Source of the DNA: Deferrisomatales bacterium | GTDB lineage: Bacteria > Desulfobacterota > Deferrisomatia > Deferrisomatales > JACRMM01 | Assembly: GCA_033551855.1 (NCBI GenBank) | Contig: JAWSUI010000013.1 | Span: 1-64,000, forward strand | DNA: 64,000 bases | Direction: 5' to 3' | In this document: piece by piece, positions 56,076 through 64,000 of the stretch | Layout of the letters: each line of letters begins with the position of its first letter | Position numbering within the stretch: position 1 is the stretch's first letter | Notes under the pieces: generated by a model | What the model was told of the DNA's origin: nothing | What the model saw: the letters and a program-made list of their open reading frames with translations, nothing else | The model's database searches: none | Made by a program: the position numbers and the translations under genes

Positions 56076-56924
56076 ATGGCGCCCAAGCCCTCTTTTCCGC
56101 CGGGAGCCTTGGCGGTAGTGGCCCTGCCCCTGGGGAATCCGGCCGACATCACCCTGCGAGCCCTCCAGGTCCTGGCCGAGGCGGACCTGGTGGCCGCGGA
56201 GGACACCCGCACGGCCGGCCGTCTCCTGGCCCGCCACGGGGTCAGGGCGCCGCTGCTCTCCTACCACGACTGGAACGAGGACCAGCGGGCGCCCGCACTG
56301 ATCGGGCGCCTGGAACAGGGCCAGCGGATCGCCCTCGTCTCGGAGGCAGGAACCCCGGGGATCTCGGATCCGGGATACGACGTGGTGCGCCTGGCGCGAC
56401 AGCGCGGCATCCCGGTTTTCCCCGTGCCGGGGCCCTGCGCGGTCACGGCATTCCTGAGCGTCTCCGGCCTCCCCACGGACGCCTTTTCCTTCTTCGGCTT
56501 CCCCCCCAGCCGCCCCCCGCGCCGGCGGGAGCTCTTCCACTCCCTCTCGGACCGCCGCGAGACCCTCGTCTTTTACGAGTCCCCTCGGCGGGTCCTGGCT
56601 GCCCTGGCCGCCGCCGAGGAGTCCTTCGGGGACCGGGAGGCAGCCCTCGGCCGCGAGCTGACCAAGCCCCACGAGGAGGTTCTCTTCGGGACGCTCTCCT
56701 CGTTGCAGGAGGCGCTCGCCCCCCGCGCCCGGGTGCTGGGGGAGGTGTGCTGGGGGGTGCGGGGGGCCCAGGCCGTCCCGCCGCGGCCCGACGAGCCCTC
56801 CGCAGCCGCCCTCCAAGAGGCCGCGGGCAGCGGCCTGCCGCCCCGGGAGGCCGCCCGCGTCCTCGCCAAGCGCTCCGGGCTCTCCGTCAAAGAGGCCTAC
56901 ACCCTCCTCCTCCGACGCCGCTGA
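56076..56924 (+). CDS. rsmI: 16S rRNA C1402 2'-O-methyltransferase
   Basis: PLGN..DIT.RA, AEDTR, AGTPGISDPG, FYESP.R, RELTK.HEE. Confidence 0.95.
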   Translation: MAPKPSFPPGALAVVALPLGNPADITLRALQVLAEADLVAAEDTRTAGRLLARHGVRAPLLSYHDWNEDQRAPALIGRLEQGQRIALVSEAGTPGISDPGYDVVRLARQRGIPVFPVPGPCAVTAFLSVSGLPTDAFSFFGFPPSRPPRRRELFHSLSDRRETLVFYESPRRVLAALAAAEESFGDREAALGRELTKPHEEVLFGTLSSLQEALAPRARVLGEVCWGVRGAQAVPPRPDEPSAAALQEAAGSGLPPREAARVLAKRSGLSVKEAYTLLLRRR

Positions 56925-57108
56925 GTGACTCCGTGCGAGAGAATCCTGGCGGGGGGTTCACTGCAAAGGGCAGAGTTGAGGGGAAGCTTGCTGAAGGTGG
57001 CCATACGACCGCCTAATCGGGCCGCCGCAAGCACGCGGCAGCATACGGCGACCCGGCAACAAGGTGGGGTCCGGGTCCACTTGAATGACTTCAGTGCAAC
57101 GCATGGAA

Positions 57109-58308
57109 TCAAGTTCTATGTGGCTGGATCGAAGCCTCGACCGCATCAGACGGTGTAATTGCTCGGTTTGGGCAAAGGCGAATGCATACTCCGCAATTCA
57201 AGCATCGCTTCGTATCTATCGAAATGCCCTCGGGAGATTCTGACAATGCCAGGCAAATCCCAGGCATCAAACAGAGCCCACATCTAGTGCATTTCTCGTC
57301 GATTACAGATAAATCAACGCGTCTGCGCACAATACTTTCAGCTGGAACCACGTATTGCAGGGCGGCGCCGACAAAATCTGCAGGGGATCCATACCCCGCC
57401 TCCTTCATAAATGTGGAGATGCCTTCGTTGATTTTGTCCAGGACCGAGAATCCTCGAACTAGTATGGAAGAACAAATTTGGACTGCAGATGCCCCCCACA
57501 TCATCATCTGCACTGCCTCTTCCCAACTCGAGATGCCGCCGCAACCCAGAACTGGGATCGAAACCGCACGGGAAACGTCCGCGACGGCACGGCACGCAAT
57601 CGGGAACAGGGGGGAACCGGTCAGAGTGCCGAAGCTGTGACCGCTTGAGGTCAAATAGGTCGGCCTTCCACCCTTACGGATGTCGATCTCCGGCGCCGCC
57701 GGGAATCCATTGATCACCACAACGGCGTCAGCCCCGGAGAGCTCGCACATACGCGCCACCTCTGCGATATCCGCCACCTGCGCGGTCAGCTTGCACAGCA
57801 CCGGCACGTTTACAGCAGACTTCACTGCACGGGTAACTCTTCCCGAGTCCACAGGCGACTGGGCCACAGACCTAGCCGAGGACCGCCCCGGCAGGTTGGG
57901 GCATGAGAGATCCAACTCGACGGCTTGGGCTCCTGCTTCTTGCAGCCCCACGGCACCGCGTTGCCAGGCCATCTCATCGGCGGCGGGAGCGAGAAGGTTG
58001 GCGATGATCGTCAGGTCGGTCTCGCGCCGAGCCCGTCGCACGAGCGCGCGTGCTTCATCGAGCGAGAGCCTCCTGTCGCCTGCGGAGACGATACCGCCTG
58101 TCCCTGGGCGTACGATCACATCGGGGTGGGACTGGCGACTCTCACCGACCATGGCCATCTTGGTGCTGACTCCCCCTGCCCCCGCCGCTGCGGCCTTCCC
58201 GATTCGGATCATGTCACCAGTCAACACACTGGACGCGACGATACACGGGCTTGCCAGGGTCAATCCGGCGAAGTGCACTTCCAGGGGGCTGCGGCAACGC
58301 TCCTCCAT
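57109..58308 (-). CDS. Dihydroorotate/dihydropyrimidine dehydrogenase (PreA-like) FMN protein with C-terminal 4Fe-4S
   Basis: ELDLSCPN, KLT, GCGGI...GASAVQI, CTRCGLC, CLNCGVC..CP. Confidence 0.85.
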   Translation of the reverse strand: MEERCRSPLEVHFAGLTLASPCIVASSVLTGDMIRIGKAAAAGAGGVSTKMAMVGESRQSHPDVIVRPGTGGIVSAGDRRLSLDEARALVRRARRETDLTIIANLLAPAADEMAWQRGAVGLQEAGAQAVELDLSCPNLPGRSSARSVAQSPVDSGRVTRAVKSAVNVPVLCKLTAQVADIAEVARMCELSGADAVVVINGFPAAPEIDIRKGGRPTYLTSSGHSFGTLTGSPLFPIACRAVADVSRAVSIPVLGCGGISSWEEAVQMMMWGASAVQICSSILVRGFSVLDKINEGISTFMKEAGYGSPADFVGAALQYVVPAESIVRRRVDLSVIDEKCTRCGLCLMPGICLALSESPEGISIDTKRCLNCGVCIRLCPNRAITPSDAVEASIQPHRT

Positions 58309-58326
58309 GTCTACTCCCGGACTGCG

Positions 58327-59136
58327 TTAGCCCTCGCTTCCCATACGAACGAGCCGACTCATCCCCAAGGGCACCTCGGGCGGCGGTGCGAGAGTGCGCA
58401 AGAGCGTGCAGTCGCAACCTCTTGCGCCCAAGTCTCCTTCCAGATAGGAAATCCCAAGCTGCCACAGCGCCAGCCAAATGCTGCAGATGTTGCTGGAAAG
58501 AACTGGTTTCTTCAACTTCTCTTCGAGATAGCGAATCACGCCAATCGTCCGCAGGTTGGTGCAGCTAATAAATAGACAATCGGAATCCCTCGTGTCCACA
58601 GACAAGGCAAACCTATACACTTCTTCATCGCTTAATCTTCCGATCATGCTGTTTGTGAACTCGCTATCGGCGGTATCTTCGTAATATCCTCGGACATTCG
58701 ATACGTGAAAACCAAAATCCCGCAGGGCTATAGATTCTATCTCATTTATTTTCCTCGTATACGGCGTCGCCAGAGCCAAAGTCCTGACTCCCAGGACACG
58801 GAACGCCTCGACCACTGCCGTCGTGGTTGTGATCGCTGGAACCCCTGCCGTGGCCGCGATCGCGGCGCAGATCCCTTCGTCGTATCCCCTGCCCTCGACC
58901 ATGCTGCCGACCGTGCAGCCGAACACGATCAGGTCCGATAGCCCTTCCGCGGAAAGGTCCACAGAGGCCCTCCTGACGTGCTTCTTGAGGTCTCGGAGCC
59001 CCCGCTCGTCCGGCGTAAACGCAATCCGGGTCGCGTACGCTTCGACCCCATTCGGACACAGGGCCCTCACCTCCGGCTCGAAGGTCGTGTTGCTCGACGG
59101 GACGATCAATCCGATTCGGCCTCGCCACCCATACAT
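58327..59136 (-). CDS. Maleate isomerase / Asp-Glu racemase / arylmalonate decarboxylase family protein
   Basis: IGLIVPSSNTT.E, FGCT.GS, ATPY, FISCTNL, KPVLSSN (both catalytic Cys present). Confidence 0.88.
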   Translation of the reverse strand: MYGWRGRIGLIVPSSNTTFEPEVRALCPNGVEAYATRIAFTPDERGLRDLKKHVRRASVDLSAEGLSDLIVFGCTVGSMVEGRGYDEGICAAIAATAGVPAITTTTAVVEAFRVLGVRTLALATPYTRKINEIESIALRDFGFHVSNVRGYYEDTADSEFTNSMIGRLSDEEVYRFALSVDTRDSDCLFISCTNLRTIGVIRYLEEKLKKPVLSSNICSIWLALWQLGISYLEGDLGARGCDCTLLRTLAPPPEVPLGMSRLVRMGSEG

Positions 59137-59325
59137 CGATTCCCTCTCCGGGGCACTTCCCCCAATGCGGTTCTCGTCTTCCCCCGCAACCCTTTTTCAC
59201 TCCCCGACATCACCCTGTGAGTAGACTCGTTACGTCACCGACGGTGTCCACCCGCCCCCGTCACCGGCTTCCTTGCGGGAGATGAACGGAGGTCATCGGC
59301 AACTTTGGGGCTCCCTCAGCGCGGG

Positions 59326-60120
59326 TCAGCCCAAGAACTCCATGATTGCTCGGGCGAACGCCTCCGGCATCTGATCCACCATGGGAACCATGCCTCCTTC
59401 TAGTTCTCCCGTGACGCTGTTCCTGATGCTGAGGGCCAGGGGGACCATCCGGGGGTACGAAAAGGGATCCTCGGTGCCGCACAGGACAAGCGTGGGGGCC
59501 CGAATCAGGGGGGTCCTTTCCTCCATCCTGTACTCGTTGACGGCACGATGTCCTTCCTCCACGCGGTCCCATACGGTGAGGGCATCCCTCACGAACCTGG
59601 TCAGGAGATCGGAACGGTCCTTCGGGTAGAACGCCCTCCGCCGCCGCCAGAGCTCGGTCAGGTGGCTGCCATCCGGTCGGGTCTCCACCTCATCGATGGG
59701 GGGTCTGGTCTTGCGTCGCTCTCGGTCCTCGGCATCCACCCACGGGGTCGATGAGAGGACGAGCTTGTCTACTCGCTCCGGGTGAGAAGCGGCGACCTCG
59801 ATAGCGACGCACCCGCCGGTGTGATGCCCCACCAATGCCGCACGCCCAATGCCCAAGGCATCCAGGAGGCGGATCACTCCGCGGGCATACCCTGTTATGG
59901 AGACCGGCCCCGCAGGACGGTAGGAATCCCCGAAACCTACGGTATCCATGGCAATGGCCCGAAATCTTGCCCCCAGGATCGGGAGTACCTCCCGGTACTC
60001 GTCCCAGGAGCGCGGCGTCTGGTGCAGCAGCAGGACCGGAGGGCCACTTCCCGCTTCGGCGTAGTGAATCTGCCCCTCCGGGGTATCCGCAAAGCGTCTG
60101 CGAGCGCCAGGCGATTCCAC
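59326..60120 (-). CDS. Alpha/beta-hydrolase-fold protein, non-canonical active site
   Basis: HY.EAG.GPP..LLHQ, D..GFGDS, elbow GHHTGG, PTLVL.G.ED; no C-terminal catalytic His. Confidence 0.85.
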   Translation of the reverse strand: MESPGARRRFADTPEGQIHYAEAGSGPPVLLLHQTPRSWDEYREVLPILGARFRAIAMDTVGFGDSYRPAGPVSITGYARGVIRLLDALGIGRAALVGHHTGGCVAIEVAASHPERVDKLVLSSTPWVDAEDRERRKTRPPIDEVETRPDGSHLTELWRRRRAFYPKDRSDLLTRFVRDALTVWDRVEEGHRAVNEYRMEERTPLIRAPTLVLCGTEDPFSYPRMVPLALSIRNSVTGELEGGMVPMVDQMPEAFARAIMEFLG

Positions 60121-60163
60121 GTCGTCACCTCCGGCGGAAGAGTCAGGGTATCGAGGAAATCCT

Positions 60164-61309
60164 TCACGGTCCGGCAGCCAAATCAACGGCCATCCGAACG
60201 GCTGCAGCCATGGACTCCGCGGGCTGTAGGTTGGGCAGGGGATTCTCGCGAAGGATGGCACGCCCCTCCTCCCCATTCCTCCCCTGAAGGCAGGCCACCA
60301 CCGGAACACGGAGCGCCCCCTCCTCCCCAAGCGCTGAAACCACTGCCAGGATCTTCTCGGCAATCACGTCGCAGCGAACCCCTCCCCCGAAGATATTCAC
60401 GAGGATCACCCTGATCCTCGGATCCTCCAGAATGAGCCGCAAGCCATCCGCCACTCCGTTCTCAACGATGCGCGCCCCGCAGTCCAGAAAGTTCCCCGGC
60501 CGGGCCCCGGCTAGGGCCAGTTGGTCCATCGTAGCCATGGTCAGTCCTGCCCCGTTGGACAGGATGCCAACTTCCCCTTCGAGCTCCACGAAGGCGAGAC
60601 CATACTTTTTCGCCCGGTCCTCGCGCCCCGTTCCCTCGTTTCGCGGCAACTCGGGGTGTCGGAAGAGCGCCGATGAGTCCGTGGAGAGTTTTCCATCTGC
60701 TGCAATCAACCTCCCGTCATGGAGCAGAACCAAGGGGTTTATCTCGGCGACCTCCGCATCGACAAACCAGAACAGATCATAGAGCCGGTGTGCGATGGAG
60801 ATGACGCCCTCGCGCCACGCGCCGGCTACCCCGGCATCGGCTAAGGCCGATCGCATGCGGTGGGTCCAGAAACCATAGCGAGGATCCAGTGGGATTCTAA
60901 CCAGCTCCTCGGGGTGCGCGCCGACAAGTTGCTCGATGTCCATGCCGCCGCGTCTGCAGAAGAGGATCACCGGGCTTCTGGCATCCGGATCCGCGACGAC
61001 CGACAAATAGTGCTCGGAGGCGATCTCAAGTCTTTCCTCGACCAGGACCCCCTTCGACTCTTCGCCTCGAATCCGACGTACCAGGAGCTCCTCGGCGACC
61101 TGCCGCGCCTCTTCCGGCGTCGATGCGAACCCAACTCCGCCGGCCTTGCCGCGACCGCCCGAGAGCACCTGGGTCTTCACGACGCACGGCCGCTTAAGCC
61201 TGGCCGCTTCCTGTGTCGCTTCCTCTGCCGAGACGCAAAATCGCCCTTCCGGCACTGGAACATGGAACCGGCGGAAGAGGTCCTTGGCTTGGTGCTCGTA
61301 CAGCTTCAT
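60164..61309 (-). CDS. Succinyl-CoA synthetase beta-like subunit
   Basis: LYEHQAK, GGRGKAGGV, AEINPL, NGAGLTMATMD, NFLD.G, VNIFGG. Confidence 0.9.
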   Translation of the reverse strand: MKLYEHQAKDLFRRFHVPVPEGRFCVSAEEATQEAARLKRPCVVKTQVLSGGRGKAGGVGFASTPEEARQVAEELLVRRIRGEESKGVLVEERLEIASEHYLSVVADPDARSPVILFCRRGGMDIEQLVGAHPEELVRIPLDPRYGFWTHRMRSALADAGVAGAWREGVISIAHRLYDLFWFVDAEVAEINPLVLLHDGRLIAADGKLSTDSSALFRHPELPRNEGTGREDRAKKYGLAFVELEGEVGILSNGAGLTMATMDQLALAGARPGNFLDCGARIVENGVADGLRLILEDPRIRVILVNIFGGGVRCDVIAEKILAVVSALGEEGALRVPVVACLQGRNGEEGRAILRENPLPNLQPAESMAAAVRMAVDLAAGP

Positions 61310-61488
61310 CTTCCGTCTCCTGTGGACTCTTCCGACCTTTGCGGCACCCTGCCGTTCTTTCCCCGGCGAGGCGGAAGAGCAAACGAATCCTCGCGATTCG
61401 CCGTCAGGGAAGACCTGCCGAGCCGATTTCTCGTCAGGGAAGTGTCCAGCGGGCGCTGCTCACCAGTCTCGCCGTAATCTCTGTCGGC

Positions 61489-62958
61489 TCAGCATGGAGC
61501 TGCCGTCTCAGCCCCCAGCCTGGTGCCATCGTCCTGAATTTGAGGCTCATGCAGTGAACCCGCCTTTTCAAATCGCGCCCTGAGCAACGGTCGGTGACTC
61601 GGGTGTGCACACCCTTCGATGATCCTTACGGCCCTCTCTCTCGGGTCCGTGCCCCTAAGATCCGCCCATCCCTGCTCCGTCACGAGCACGTCCACCTCGT
61701 GTTCCGTGTGGTCACAGTGGCAGACTCGCGCGGTCACGGCGGATACGGCTCCTGCTCTTGCCGTTGAAGGAGTGGCGAAGACAGAAACCAGAGCATTTCG
61801 AGCGTACTCTATGGACCCTCCGACGCCGCTTACCAGTTTCCCGCCTTCCAGATGACTGGAGTTTGCGTGGCCGTAAACATCCACCTCTATGGCCGAGTTG
61901 ATCCCAATGCAGCCCAAGCGGCCGATCACCTCGGGGCTTGCCACCACGTCTACCGGTCTGATGATGAGCCGCTCTCGAATGGCCTCTAGATGTCGAGGCA
62001 ACCTCTCCAACACAGCCGCAGAGAGAAACAGGCCCGAGCCGGACACGGCTTCGATCCTGCCCGCTTCGAGCAGTTGCAGAGCTGCGTCGCCCAGAAGGGG
62101 CGAATGGAGCGAAATCGGCCCCCAGGGACCCTCGGTCATGGCCTCGACGACGGCATCTCCGAGCGCCCCCAGCCCCACCTGAAGGGGCGGCAGGGGCTTC
62201 GGCAGTCGGCCCTGATGCCACTCACCCTCGAGGAAGAGGCGAAGATTTCTCGCAATCGTCTCTTGCACCTCCCCGATGGGAGCGGGGGCAATCGGGTCCG
62301 GGGCCTCGTCGCTCTCCACGACGGCGACGATCTTTTCGGGATCGACGGGGATTCGGGGGACACCGACCCGGTCCAGCGGTTTCAATATCGGAATGGGCTT
62401 GGTCCGAGGGGGTGGGTCCAATACGAGGACGTCGTGGATTCCCTCCAATCCCAGGGGAAGCCAGTGGTTGACTTCCACCACCACGCGGTCCGCGAGGGCC
62501 ACCATGGTGGGTGCGTCGCCCAGGCACAGGCTGGGAATCAGGGTCCCGTCCTCAGCGATCCCCGCGACCTCAACGACGGCCACGTCGGGCCGGCCGAAGG
62601 CCCCGCTTCGCGCCTTTCGGCAGAATGCGCTGACTCCCCAGTCTGCGTAGGAGACCTGCCCTTGGTTGATGGCCTGGGTGAGATCCGGGTTCGCCTGCAT
62701 TCCCAACCTGCGGCGAAGTGCTCGGGCGCGTGCCAGGGCGCCGTCGACCGGATCACCCAGGGGAGCGATGGACCAGAGACACAATTCCCCCACGACACCA
62801 GCCTCTGCCCGTTCGGTCAGGGCCCGGAAGAAGGCTCGAGGATACCCTCCAGTGGTCGTCCCGGTGGTTGCCACCGTCCACCCGGATTGAACGAGGGCGG
62901 CGGCGTCTTCCGGGCTGCGCCGAACGCGTTCCAGTGCAGGGCATAGAATCCGGCTCAT
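61489..62958 (-). CDS. Acetyl-CoA hydrolase / succinyl-CoA:acetate CoA-transferase homologue lacking the catalytic Glu
   Basis: EGIHD, IPI....DRVG, PEVIGRLG..INSA.EVD.YG.ANS, DHTEH.VD.LVTEQG.ADLRG, AHP; HSPLLGD replaces YxEVIQD. Confidence 0.85.
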   Translation of the reverse strand: MSRILCPALERVRRSPEDAAALVQSGWTVATTGTTTGGYPRAFFRALTERAEAGVVGELCLWSIAPLGDPVDGALARARALRRRLGMQANPDLTQAINQGQVSYADWGVSAFCRKARSGAFGRPDVAVVEVAGIAEDGTLIPSLCLGDAPTMVALADRVVVEVNHWLPLGLEGIHDVLVLDPPPRTKPIPILKPLDRVGVPRIPVDPEKIVAVVESDEAPDPIAPAPIGEVQETIARNLRLFLEGEWHQGRLPKPLPPLQVGLGALGDAVVEAMTEGPWGPISLHSPLLGDAALQLLEAGRIEAVSGSGLFLSAAVLERLPRHLEAIRERLIIRPVDVVASPEVIGRLGCIGINSAIEVDVYGHANSSHLEGGKLVSGVGGSIEYARNALVSVFATPSTARAGAVSAVTARVCHCDHTEHEVDVLVTEQGWADLRGTDPRERAVRIIEGCAHPSHRPLLRARFEKAGSLHEPQIQDDGTRLGAETAAPC

Positions 62959-63833
62959 GGCTTACGGCCCAGAGCCTCGCCGACCCGCAGCGCCACTTCT
63001 TCAGGGGTCCGGGCCACCGGGACCCCGGCTCCCTGGAGTGCCTGCTCCTTGGAAGCATAGGAGCCGCGTCCGCCTGAGATGATCGCCCCGGCGTGGCCCA
63101 TTGCCTTCCCCTCGGGGGCGGTGCGACCCGCGATGATGGCGACCACTGGCTTGCTCACGTGAGCAGCGATGTACTCCGCCGCCTCTTCTTCGCAGCTGCG
63201 GCCAATCTCACCCACCAGCACGATGGCCTCTGTCTGCGGGTCGGCCTCGAAGCGCTCCAGCATGTCCACGAAACCCACGCCGGTGATAGGGTCCCCTCCG
63301 ATTCCGACGCACGTCGTTTGCCCGAGACCGGCCAGGGTGAGGGCGTGGGCCACCGCGTAACTGAATGTGCCGCTCCGGGAGACAAGGCCGACGGGCCCTG
63401 GCATGTAGATCGAACCCGGCAGGAAGCCGATCGAGCAACCGTCGGTAGAGAGAAGGCCCGGGCTGTTGGGACCGATGACCGTGGCTCCGCAATCCCGGAT
63501 CAGAGGCATGAGGAGCATCATGTCGCGGACCGGAACCCCTTCCACCACGGCCGCCACGAGAGGGATTCCTGCCTCCAAGTCCTCGGCGATCGCCTGGGCC
63601 GTGTAAGGACCGGGAACGAAGGTGATCGCGGCGTCGGCACCCCCGTGGCGAACCGCCTCGGCTACCGTGTCGTAGACGGGGACGCCATTTACGGTGCTCC
63701 CACCGCGCCCCGGCGTGACGCCGGCGACGATGCGGGTGCCATATTCGAGCATCCTGGCGGTGTGGTAGCGGCCGAAGGTACCTGTGATGCCTTGGGCGAC
63801 GACGCGGGTGTTTCGGTTGACGAGGATGCTCAA
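62955..63833 (-). CDS. Succinyl-CoA synthetase alpha-like subunit
   Basis: MSILV...QGITG, GVTPG, IGPN.PG, SRSGT, GIGGD, GEIG, MGHAGA (phospho-His). Confidence 0.92.
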   Translation of the reverse strand: MSILVNRNTRVVAQGITGTFGRYHTARMLEYGTRIVAGVTPGRGGSTVNGVPVYDTVAEAVRHGGADAAITFVPGPYTAQAIAEDLEAGIPLVAAVVEGVPVRDMMLLMPLIRDCGATVIGPNSPGLLSTDGCSIGFLPGSIYMPGPVGLVSRSGTFSYAVAHALTLAGLGQTTCVGIGGDPITGVGFVDMLERFEADPQTEAIVLVGEIGRSCEEEAAEYIAAHVSKPVVAIIAGRTAPEGKAMGHAGAIISGGRGSYASKEQALQGAGVPVARTPEEVALRVGEALGRKP

Positions 63834-64000
63834 GACGTGTCCTTCCTGGGCGCATTCCCCAGCCTTCGCGTCCAGAGGCGTACCTGCGCGATGCGACGCT
63901 CGGGAGCCGCGACCCTACTTTTCGCGCCTCCCCCTGGCTTCGCTTCGCAATTGTTGGGTTTCCCGCTCATCCACGGCATGGTCCTCGTCCAGAGCGACCC

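Follow-up and report, generated by a model that had tools for sequence, protein, structure and literature searches.

An eight-gene operon that runs over the end of the window, the 64,000-nt stretch of DNA analyzed here (positions 1 to 64,000 of contig JAWSUI010000013.1, assembly GCA_033551855.1, from a Deferrisomatales bacterium called G000 in comparisons), is a horizontally acquired island in foreign, lower-GC DNA. Judged from gene context, chances are about even that it encodes an accessory route that imports an oxindole acid, opens its lactam, forms a CoA ester and feeds into the iaa pathway, with free 2-oxindole-3-acetate as the most likely substrate. A TRAP transporter would import an auxin-derived, oxindole-type lactam acid, the ATP-dependent lactamase HyuAB would open the lactam to yield (2-aminophenyl)succinate, and this product, as a CoA thioester, would be handed to an iaa-type pathway of anaerobic indoleacetate degradation, whose genes lie elsewhere in this genome, on contig C15.

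All eight genes lie on the minus strand in the order hyuA, hyuB, sucD-like, CoA-transferase-like, sucC-like, α/β-fold, isomerase-like and DHODH-like. Both hyuA (65805-67865; Pfam Hydantoinase_A, 4e-97) and most of hyuB, the β subunit gene of an ATP-dependent hydantoinase/lactamase (3' end at 63915-64000, reaching contig position 65738; Hydantoinase_B, 1.4e-166), lie beyond the window, which holds the six distal genes. These encode a SucD-like CoA-binding subunit (62955-63833, 292 aa), an AarC/YgfH-type CoA-transferase homologue (61489-62958, 489 aa), a SucC-like ATP-grasp subunit (60164-61309, 381 aa), an α/β-hydrolase-fold protein without the canonical triad (59326-60120, 264 aa), a two-cysteine isomerase/racemase of Amdase/maleate-isomerase type (58327-59136, 269 aa) and, last in the operon, a DHODH/PreA-like flavoprotein (57109-58308, 399 aa). 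The α/β-fold ORF extends to 60363, with a GTG at 60120 as its likely start; the sucD-like and CoA-transferase-like genes share 4 nt at the stop of the former and the start of the latter, and the intra-operon gaps include two of 179 and 189 nt among several short ones. The hyuA start was assigned, and predicted promoter-like sites were located by sequence. Divergent from the operon, a GntR/FCD regulator gene (68250-69020, plus strand; Pfam GntR and FCD) and the dctPQM TRAP transporter genes (69013-72096, plus strand; Pfam DctP/Q/M) also lie outside the window. A preliminary description of this DNA had reported six co-oriented genes, whose coordinates and strand are as given above and whose named families agree with Pfam and NCBIfam; its suspicion that the operon continues was borne out by hyuA and hyuB past 64000, and the transporter and regulator genes that it envisaged there are present. 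It had also placed the start of the operon right after rsmI. That gene is indeed there (56076-56924, plus strand; TIGR00096, 198.9 bits, cut-off 167.9), but it is convergent with the 3' end of the operon, which consequently terminates at rsmI and does not begin there.

The low GC noted earlier is equally evident. GC content is 0.70-0.74 before position 57000 and 0.53-0.68 after it within the window; with the part outside included, the range is 0.50-0.68, compared with a genome value of 0.696. The drop falls in the intergenic stretch where native rsmI and the island converge (56925-57108). The low-GC stretch continues to at least contig position 76000, and a public contig of 12.5 kb covers 56860-60500 and continues past it, spanning the boundary. 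No orthologue of the α/β-fold protein was found in 40 relatives searched, the top match being 37% identical over residues 6-125 only. Gene layout and GC content thus support the earlier proposal of a single catabolic operon in foreign DNA, and ring opening, also proposed, is a likely step given the ATP-dependent lactamase/hydantoinase genes at the head of the operon. The presumed anaerobic lifestyle fits as well: the host looks anaerobic, since no haem-copper oxidase scored above the cut-off in its genome, which is rated 100% complete.

The α/β-fold protein is one of three proteins in which altered motifs, noted in the preliminary description, were confirmed. Its nucleophile elbow reads GHHTG, the catalytic-histidine position reads GGM and HQTP replaces HGxP; aligned to CarC (1j1i), the serine faces His100 and the histidine faces a methionine. 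H99, H100 and other residues are invariant across 33 aligned homologues, and in these sequences the elbow and histidine changes that abolish the triad are invariant or nearly so. An AlphaFold model (pLDDT 92.7) shows a generic α/β-hydrolase fold with a cap domain, for which Foldseek returned enol-lactonase, epoxide hydrolases and dehalogenases at a TM of ~0.8 and identities of <=27%. Lacking both nucleophile and catalytic histidine, the protein probably does not act as an ordinary amidase; it may instead carry out a non-hydrolytic proton-transfer or hydration step. The literature may already give this gene an iaa name.

Its homologues point to auxin. Among 80 loci that contain homologues of 51-77% identity, 57 also include signature genes of auxin (indoleacetate) breakdown, of the anaerobic iaa type or the aerobic iad type. 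Aerobic iad marks alone (iadA/B, Rieske α/β, thiolase, cyclase) occur in 40, hydantoinase or iaa marks alone in 16, and both kinds in one. The 23 loci without auxin marks, 10 of them <=7.2 kb, count against the preferred reading; none of the annotated loci holds a pyrimidine or hydantoin utilization set. Individual loci bring parts of the island together. HyuA (64-73% identity) adjoins the α/β-fold gene in eight loci, with TRAP, isomerase-like and DHODH-family paralogue genes. Locus L029 reads ACAD-GntR-B12-mutase-HyuA-HyuB-α/β-PaaK ligase-Mo hydroxylase, L030 reads SucC-SucD-CoAT-α/β-ligase-Mo hydroxylase-HyuA, and L114 reads SucC-SucD-CoAT-HyuA(65%)-HyuB(70%)-DctPQM, while in L113 SucCD and a CoA-transferase homologue (CoAT) without the catalytic glutamate are found together with the mutase, HyuAB and the Mo hydroxylase.

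HyuA has the three-domain organization and, together with HyuB, the architecture of the hydrolytic branch, as judged from Pfam domains and nearest structures; the nearest solved relatives are caprolactamase (6yra) and N-methylhydantoinase, ahead of carboxylases. The two-subunit HyuA/HyuB architecture is shared with CapAB, N-methylhydantoinase and 5-oxoprolinase, but the island proteins differ from these systems in gene context and score 617 bits (CapA-like) and 293 bits, far short of the CapA and CapB equivalog cut-offs of 1000. HyuAB of the island type is always accompanied by a CoA-activating system: the island and L114 have SCS plus CoAT, L013 and L048 an AMP ligase. A constant CoA-activating partner fits a lactamase that acts on the free acid, as such a route would need CoA activation. 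The nearest solved binding protein (4mnc) is only 28% identical to DctP, a point against the preferred reading.

The isomerase-like protein matches Pfam Amdase (1.1e-26) and no NCBIfam model at its cut-off. Among solved structures it is closest to maleate isomerase (2xec, E 1.5e-18). The two catalytic cysteines, which in maleate isomerases sit on facing domains, and the motifs PSSN and TPY are aligned with those of the Nocardia enzyme; C74 and C192 are invariant in all five orthologues. Similarity to maleate isomerase and arylmalonate decarboxylase is nonetheless low, and the gene context points to an aryl-substituted substrate; the protein might racemize or isomerize the C3/arylsuccinate center. 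The DHODH-like protein combines Pfam DHO_dh (2.5e-29) and Fer4, with a C-terminal ferredoxin domain of the 2x[4Fe-4S] type, and reaches 195 bits against NCBIfam PreA, below the cut-off of 335. Pig DPD is its closest solved relative (residues 534-835 and 922-997); the cysteine of the DHODH-type LSCPN motif is retained and a valine is aligned with DPD Cys671. It thus shares the FMN barrel, the LSCPN cysteine and the PreA-like di-cluster ferredoxin domain with class 1B DHODH (PyrDK) and PreA, from which it differs in scoring below all equivalog cut-offs and in having no adjacent PreT or PyrK; a PreT-like gene is absent from the operon genes. Sister modules carry a PyrK/PyrD-type paralogue in its place, and on metagenome contig L095 a 71% identical homologue adjoins an α/β-fold homologue. 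In the oxindole route, this flavoprotein could work on a succinamate-like Cα-Cβ bond beside the lactam carbonyl.

The idea of the preliminary description, carried further, would make the substrate an N-heterocyclic acid without aromatic character, for example a 5-substituted hydantoin, a dihydroorotate/orotate-like ring, a cyclic imide or 5-oxoproline. Ring reduction would then fall to the DHODH-like enzyme and ring opening to HyuAB, with racemization by the two-cysteine enzyme as hydantoinase processes have it. The α/β-fold protein would take off an amide or a carbamoyl group, leaving a dicarboxylate for the SCS paralogue to handle. Caprolactamase models are the best matches of HyuA/B, the DHODH/PreA family normally comprises pyrimidine-ring enzymes, the Amdase/Asp-Glu/hydantoin racemase superfamily is known beside hydantoinases, and organic acids of many kinds are served by TRAP and GntR/FCD systems. 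The unlikely amidase, the prevalence of auxin marks in the surveyed loci, the lack of pyrimidine or hydantoin utilization sets in those annotated and the recurrence of the SucCD/CoAT trio beside aryl-type mutase, Mo-hydroxylase and PaaK-ligase genes all speak against such a substrate, which we regard as rather improbable. The earlier analogy to maleamate and pyrimidine degradation loses ground for a related reason: with marker genes in auxin-degradation loci and a complete iaa-type cluster on C15, it is outweighed in likelihood by an oxindole substrate.

A possible, if less favored, substrate is another aromatic lactam or an intermediate further along auxin/tryptophan breakdown; dioxindole-3-acetate, 2-oxoindolin-3-ylidene-acetate, isatin/isatinate or a quinolinone carboxylate would be candidates. 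Here the DHODH-like protein would reduce or form an exocyclic or ring C=C bond, the isomerase-like protein would set its geometry and the α/β-fold protein would hydrate or dehydrate. The redox enzyme speaks for this alternative. Since a route from 2-oxindole-3-acetate has no obvious redox step, it leaves the conserved DHODH-family gene unexplained, and the module does conserve a dedicated DHODH-family paralogue distinct from housekeeping pyrD, with two DHODH-family copies each in genomes G041, G042 and G044 and the PreA-like form in G000. Conservation of both maleate-isomerase cysteines is in keeping with it, as is the descent of the α/β-fold family from the epoxide-hydrolase/dehalogenase branch, which activates water, and its occurrence in aerobic iad loci beside genes of the cyclase family and genes resembling those for 2-oxoacid:ferredoxin oxidoreductase. 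Against it, L114 manages with HyuAB, SCS, CoAT and TRAP only.

The oxindole route further calls for CoA chemistry, in which the SCS paralogue and the CoAT homologue might together make or reposition the thioester. The latter has the two-domain AcetylCoA_hydro fold (PF02550 and PF13336) and scores 467 bits against TIGR03458 (cut-off 659). It shares its full-length fold with AarC and YgfH (ScpC), matching solved members (2g39, 4eu3) at E ~1e-95 to 1e-105. The catalytic glutamate of family I CoA-transferases, Glu294 in AarC, forms the enzyme-CoA thioester. In the alignment, this residue (YSEV) falls on LHSPLL, with a proline at the catalytic position, whereas the remaining subfamily has alanine, serine or glycine; the subfamily also has GS[IVL]E[FY] instead of GGSGDF. 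The glutamate is missing from 47 of the 121 aligned sequences, including all 38 closest database homologues, and the Glu-less gene invariably lies beside an SCS paralogue or a mutase in the loci examined. The SucD-like subunit passes TIGR01019 (378.7 bits, cut-off 353), keeps the active-site phosphohistidine (MGHAGAI) and shares 53% identity with its housekeeping counterpart on contig C26. Its SucC-like partner passes NF001913 (377.2 bits, cut-off 370) and is a paralogue of the C26 housekeeping SucC with 40% identity. Both glycine loops, which in the SucC β-subunit face the succinate/phosphohistidine site, are changed (FLDCGARI for FLDVGGGA and NIFGGGV for NIFGGI), as they are in all four cluster-type SucC paralogues, while the housekeeping copy is intact. 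Supplying or forming a CoA thioester is thus a more plausible task for the SCS paralogue than the substrate-level phosphorylation put forward in the preliminary description.

Whether such proteins are functional bears on a further alternative, namely that two unrelated modules, hyuAB-sucD-CoAT-sucC and α/β-isomerase-DHODH, share a mosaic island in which some of the proteins with lost residues are decaying. The two parts do occur apart, as L114 is without the second and L013-L015, L026 and L095 are without the SCS/CoAT trio, and the two wide gaps within the operon are in keeping with this. Likewise, no α/β-fold protein was detected at E<=1e-40 in G075 and G308 (none of five entries), which hold the SCS-CoAT-HyuAB-TRAP set, a point against the preferred reading, and the island is thus a fusion of two sub-modules able to work apart. 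Unrelatedness and decay, on the other hand, we consider improbable: all genes are intact and co-oriented, with the 4-nt overlap and the short gaps; terminator-like sites are no more numerous in the operon than in shuffled sequence (4 versus a mean of 4.3); and L030 links SucCD-CoAT directly to the α/β-fold gene. Conservation of the substitutions in the 33 α/β-fold and 38 CoAT homologues, with identities of 45-77%, is a sign of selection rather than decay.

The pathway that the oxindole route would feed is present in the host. Contig C15 carries a complete iaa-type cluster at native GC, with an IaaL-like CoA-transferase, an IaaF-like ACAD (71% to L020), ETF, a B12 mutase (70%), HyuAB, two PaaK-type ligases, a Mo hydroxylase and TRAP genes; the island HyuA shares 41% identity with its C15 counterpart, and HyuB 31%. 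Five other module genomes have an iaa-type cluster too, with an IaaF-like gene and adjacent mutase in three of them, and all five module genomes tested have the Mo hydroxylase (55-63% identity), the mutase (68-73%) and the IaaL-like protein (59-64%). As IaaL is kept in all module genomes, the SCS/CoAT pair is not a simple IaaL replacement. The iaa-type mutase clade is common in the phylum (85 of 400 sampled genomes), so co-occurrence with the mutase is weak evidence; the genomes are also mutually related.

No description of this gene set was found in the literature searched, in line with the earlier suggestion of an undescribed pathway; the auxin loci and the C15 cluster, by contrast, tie the island to known pathways. 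The α/β-fold family, at 51-57% identity, is common to the island and the aerobic iad/adg auxin-degradation locus of Variovorax, Achromobacter and Bradyrhizobium; its gene adjoins iadR-iadA in Variovorax and lies within the locus in Bosea and Bradyrhizobium. A Variovorax Rieske system converts IAA to 2-oxindole-3-acetate (bioRxiv 10.1101/2022.11.01.514793), and this first product of the iad/adg route is the substrate proposed here for the island. Unlike iad/adg, the island has no Rieske dioxygenase, IOR-like IadAB or MarR, and its host has no haem-copper oxidase. Hydantoinases of the iaa type are predicted 2-oxoindoleacetyl-CoA γ-lactamases (PMC5214803), and IaaL transfers CoA between succinyl-CoA and phenylsuccinate, also intramolecularly (PMC8360864).

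Like the iaa cluster of Aromatoleum aromaticum and A. evansii, the island has a hydantoinase-type lactamase, a GntR-type regulator, binding-protein-dependent uptake and, presumably, CoA-thioester chemistry on an arylsuccinate, and iaa-type clusters elsewhere (L029, L030, L113) contain island marker genes. IaaF is a decarboxylating ACAD, IaaL a family III CoA-transferase and IaaB a PaaK-type ligase. The island lacks all three, together with the Mo hydroxylase and the B12 mutase (IaaGH), all of which are on C15, and adds the SCS paralogue, the Glu-less CoAT homologue, the triad-less α/β-fold protein, the two-cysteine isomerase-like protein and the DHODH-like flavoprotein.

The low-GC operon close to the end of the window is best filed as a variant within auxin catabolism that carries three uncharacterised enzyme subfamilies. 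The contig that carries it, JAWSUI010000013.1, is 81,057 bases long and belongs to a 4.24-Mb assembly comprising 132 contigs at 69.6% GC. Six intact open reading frames lie on the minus strand from 57109 to 63833, and Pfam and NCBIfam place them in the families named in the preliminary description, which confirms the co-oriented genes noted there. They encode a SucD-like protein (TIGR01019, 378.7 bits against a cut-off of 353), an AarC/YgfH-type CoA-transferase homologue (467 bits against 659), a SucC-like protein (NF001913, 377 bits against 370), an α/β-hydrolase-fold protein, an Amdase/maleate-isomerase family protein (58327-59136) and a DHODH/PreA-like flavoprotein that ends in a ferredoxin domain (195 bits against 335 for the PreA model). 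The neighbouring rsmI is a real gene and is convergent with the last gene of the operon, which therefore ends beside rsmI rather than starting right after it, as had been proposed. The suspicion that the operon continues past the window was borne out by hyuB (63915-65738) and hyuA (65805-67865), the two subunits of an ATP-dependent hydantoinase/lactamase, which lie upstream on the same minus strand. The hyuA start follows a GGAGAGG ribosome-binding site, itself preceded by a promoter-like TTGACC-16-TACAAT. Both subunits match caprolactamase models best, yet fall far under those cut-offs; among solved structures, caprolactamase and N-methylhydantoinase come nearest, with ketone carboxylases ranking lower. 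The transporter and regulator that were to be sought beyond 64000 are also present, as a GntR/FCD regulator and a TRAP system (dctP, dctQ, dctM) divergently transcribed from the operon. The closest solved relative of the TRAP binding protein is PDB 4MNC, whose ligand we take to be benzoylformate.

The lower GC content of this DNA was evident from the outset and is now quantified: at about position 57000 it drops from 0.70-0.74 to 0.53-0.68, and it remains low as far as contig position 76000 or beyond. No orthologue of the α/β-fold protein was found in the 40 relatives searched, which returned generic α/β hydrolases only, the best of them matching at 37% identity over just residues 6-125. Homologues at 63-77% identity occur instead in Desulfobacteraceae, Syntrophorhabdales and Chloroflexota assemblies, and at 51-60% in Variovorax, Bradyrhizobium, Reyranella, Bosea and Caldarchaeum. 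One public sequencing run contains this DNA, and in it a 12.5-kb contig spans 56860-60500 and beyond; the 3' end of rsmI is therefore physically joined to the island, with the limit that this run may itself be the source of the assembly. Another contig of the run skips 338 bases inside rsmI (56502 to 56841) at a depth of 24.7, against 13.3 for the full form, and it seems that part of the population has a truncated rsmI or that a close strain differs there. The low-GC DNA goes on past the TRAP genes (contig positions 72290-81000) with what looks like a separate, second acquired catabolic set. Its genes encode an epimerase/erythronate-dehydrogenase-like protein, a 582-residue 3-hydroxyacyl-CoA dehydrogenase with 280 unassigned residues at the N-terminus, an ABC transporter of the branched-chain type, a β-keto-acid cleavage enzyme (BKACE) and a regulator of the cupin-HTH type.

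Three of the operon's proteins belong to conserved subfamilies, each without residues that its family needs. Across 33 aligned homologues of the α/β-fold protein, the nucleophile elbow invariably reads G-H-H-T-G, the catalytic-His position is occupied by G-G-M, HQTP replaces the HGxP oxyanion motif, and further cap residues (His, Arg, Tyr, Asp and Glu) never vary. In the alignment with CarC, the Ser of CarC falls on His and the His of CarC on Met. The predicted model is confident and shows a generic α/β-hydrolase fold without a close solved relative; likewise, a search of the ESM Atlas returned only generic α/β-hydrolase names. In the CoA-transferase homologue, Glu294 of AarC (YSEV), which we take to be the residue carrying the CoA thioester, aligns to Pro, and in the L030 protein to Ala. 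Glu is present at this position in 74 and absent from 47 of 121 aligned sequences, and all 38 of the closest homologues (45-76% identity) lack it. These 38 also share GS[IVL]E[FY]AR at the site of GGSGDFAR. A literature search for CoA-transferases without the catalytic glutamate found nothing. The SucC paralogue has changed VGGGA and GGI loops, presumably at the succinate site; the change is seen in all four cluster-type copies, and the housekeeping copy encoded on another contig has both loops intact; a literature search on the succinate site of these synthetases gave no match. Judging from these residues, the annotations "α/β hydrolase", "succinyl-CoA:acetate CoA-transferase" and "succinate-CoA ligase β" are probably wrong on mechanism. 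The remaining proteins retain key residues, namely the active-site His of the SucD-like protein, both cysteines of maleate isomerase and the LSCPN cysteine of the DHODH-like protein, which has Val at the position of DPD Cys671. The isomerase-like protein is also extended at its C-terminus by about 25 residues, which its four aligned orthologues lack. Complex prediction for the SucD-like and CoA-transferase-like proteins gave no answer, with both scores at zero, and is neutral on binding.

The genomic company of the α/β-fold gene points to auxin catabolism. A search with the α/β-fold protein returned 80 loci, and mapping hallmark proteins onto them showed that 40 carried only marks of aerobic auxin degradation (iad; iadA/B-like oxidoreductase, Rieske α/β, thiolase, cyclase), 16 only hydantoinase or anaerobic indoleacetate (iaa) marks, and one both kinds; of the 23 without marks, 10 were 7.2 kb or less. 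For instance, the gene adjoins iadR-iadA in Variovorax and lies inside a Rieske/ligase locus in Bosea and Bradyrhizobium (iad gene names follow passages of PMC9613470 and PMC12852158). In Variovorax-type loci, those of Variovorax ureilyticus (L040, 7832-10792) and about 30 other Comamonadaceae loci, it follows an octopine-dehydrogenase-like/3-hydroxyacyl-CoA-dehydrogenase-like gene and sits just outside iadR-iadA. A racemase adjoining it in one Bosea locus has no detectable similarity to the island's isomerase-like protein. On the anaerobic side, Pfam annotation of selected loci showed that L029 is a textbook iaa-type cluster enclosing the α/β-fold gene, and that L030 has the order SucC-SucD-CoA-transferase-α/β-fold-PaaK ligase-Mo hydroxylase-HyuA. 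By Pfam, a module that recurs in Desulfobacteraceae assemblies runs GntR, PyrK-like, PyrD-like, α/β-fold, (sometimes AOR), isomerase-like, HyuA, HyuB, DctPQM and AMP ligase, its HyuA and HyuB sharing 64-73% identity with the island copies. In four loci (L014, L015, L017, L026) the AOR-family (aldehyde:ferredoxin oxidoreductase) gene separates the α/β-fold gene from the isomerase-like one, and it may connect this module with indole-3-acetaldehyde or some other aldehyde. Being common to aerobic and anaerobic auxin loci, the α/β-fold family offers a handle on a step that both routes share.

The other island genes also recur elsewhere. Among 400 genomes sampled from the phylum, 7 have a close homologue of the CoA-transferase. 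At L113, mutase-B12-DctMQP-SucD-SucC-CoA-transferase (Glu-less) stands opposite GntR-HyuA-HyuB-Mo hydroxylase; L114 reads SucC-SucD-CoA-transferase (Glu-less)-HyuA (65%)-HyuB (70%)-DctPQM; at L115 a mutase adjoins a CoA-transferase with Gly at the Glu position. A genome search did not find the α/β-fold gene in G075 or G308, and the island therefore unites two sub-modules that can also be found separately. The PyrDK-type genes that adjoin the α/β-fold gene in sister modules might have been housekeeping pyrimidine genes; this is ruled out by three genomes (G041, G042, G044), each of which has a second copy elsewhere in addition to the module copy, and the module DHODH-family gene is a dedicated paralogue. 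A metagenome scan with the DHODH-like protein found two true relatives only, both on short contigs. On one metagenome contig (L095) a PreA-like gene (71%) directly adjoins an α/β-fold gene (74%).

The host also encodes a complete iaa-type cluster outside the window, at native GC with GC3 above 0.9 (contig C15, 1100-24118). It comprises a family III CoA-transferase (IaaL-like), an acyl-CoA dehydrogenase-type protein (71% identity to the IaaF-like gene of L020), ETFαβ with an ETF-QO-like protein, a split B12 mutase (70% identity), a second HyuAB, two PaaK-type ligases, TRAP genes and a three-subunit Mo hydroxylase. Next to the hydroxylase lies yqeB (343 bits, cut-off 220), which serves the selenium-dependent maturation of the Mo cofactor, and this adjacency hints that the hydroxylase depends on selenium. 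Other module genomes likewise carry an iaa-type pathway on contigs apart from the module. The Mo hydroxylase (55-63% identity), B12 mutase (68-73%) and IaaL-like protein (59-64%) occur in all five tested, and an IaaF-like gene with adjoining mutase in three. Since 85 of the 400 phylum genomes sampled have a member of the mutase clade (61-92% identity) and the module genomes are mutually related, this co-occurrence is only modest evidence; aryl-type acyl-CoA mutase clusters are common across the phylum. The universal IaaL-like gene among these five genomes rules out the synthetase and CoA-transferase pair as its replacement. The host genome has no haem-copper oxidase above cut-off and two HGD-D family genes, which fits an anaerobe.

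Auxin and 2-oxindole-3-acetate, its inactive oxidation product, are abundant plant signals. To our knowledge, the early steps of oxygen-free auxin breakdown have never been shown biochemically, and the first anaerobic intermediate was reportedly identified as 2-oxo-IAA by Ebenau-Jehle in 2012. In Variovorax, the Rieske system converts IAA to 2-oxindole-3-acetate, with anthranilate as the end product, according to 10.1101/2022.11.01.514793. Together with the reported anaerobic intermediate, an oxindole acid would thus be common to the aerobic and anaerobic routes. The canonical route uses CoA esters from the first step (PMC8360864), and iaa-type hydantoinases are predicted 2-oxoindoleacetyl-CoA γ-lactamases (PMC5214803).

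The idea in the preliminary description of an undescribed pathway that reduces or opens a cyclic substrate is partly supported; the operon is foreign and reaches past the window, and it is best placed within auxin catabolism. One rather doubtful reading of the whole is that the island gives 2-oxindole-3-acetate and related oxindole acids, plant- or microbe-made, a CoA-independent and so far undescribed entry into anaerobic auxin catabolism, using three repurposed scaffolds. The assignment of an oxindole acid as substrate, taken by itself, has about an even chance. In the favoured mechanism, the TRAP system would import the free acid under GntR control, and HyuAB would spend ATP to hydrolyse the lactam to (2-aminophenyl)succinate. 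A free-acid route, unlike the canonical one, needs activation at a later point, and a CoA-activating system always accompanies island-type HyuAB, either the synthetase with the CoA-transferase homologue (island, L114) or an AMP ligase (L013, L048). The product would then join the IaaL, mutase and IaaF steps encoded on C15. In the more doubtful reading, the synthetase paralogue, with a widened acid pocket, would activate (2-aminophenyl)succinate, and the glutamate-less homologue would move CoA from one carboxyl of the arylsuccinate to the other, the substrate's own carboxylate standing in for the missing glutamate. The α/β-fold protein probably performs proton transfer or hydration; in the more doubtful reading, its His-based, nucleophile-free site would make it a tautomerase or hydratase acting on the oxindole. 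Literature searches joining phenylsuccinyl-CoA, oxindole-3-acetic acid, hydantoinase and DHODH, or using the gene names iaaA/iaaC/iaaK, gave nothing relevant. The island and the modules of uncultured sulfate-reducer relatives hold concrete candidate genes for free-acid entry.

Two further roles are inferred in the same way. The two-cysteine protein may racemise the C3 centre or isomerise an arylmaleate-type double bond, and hydantoin racemases, partners of hydantoinases, are a model for the former. The DHODH-like enzyme would fit the succinamate-like carbonyl-Cα-Cβ-carboxylate skeleton of the oxindole acid, the same skeleton as that of dihydroorotate.
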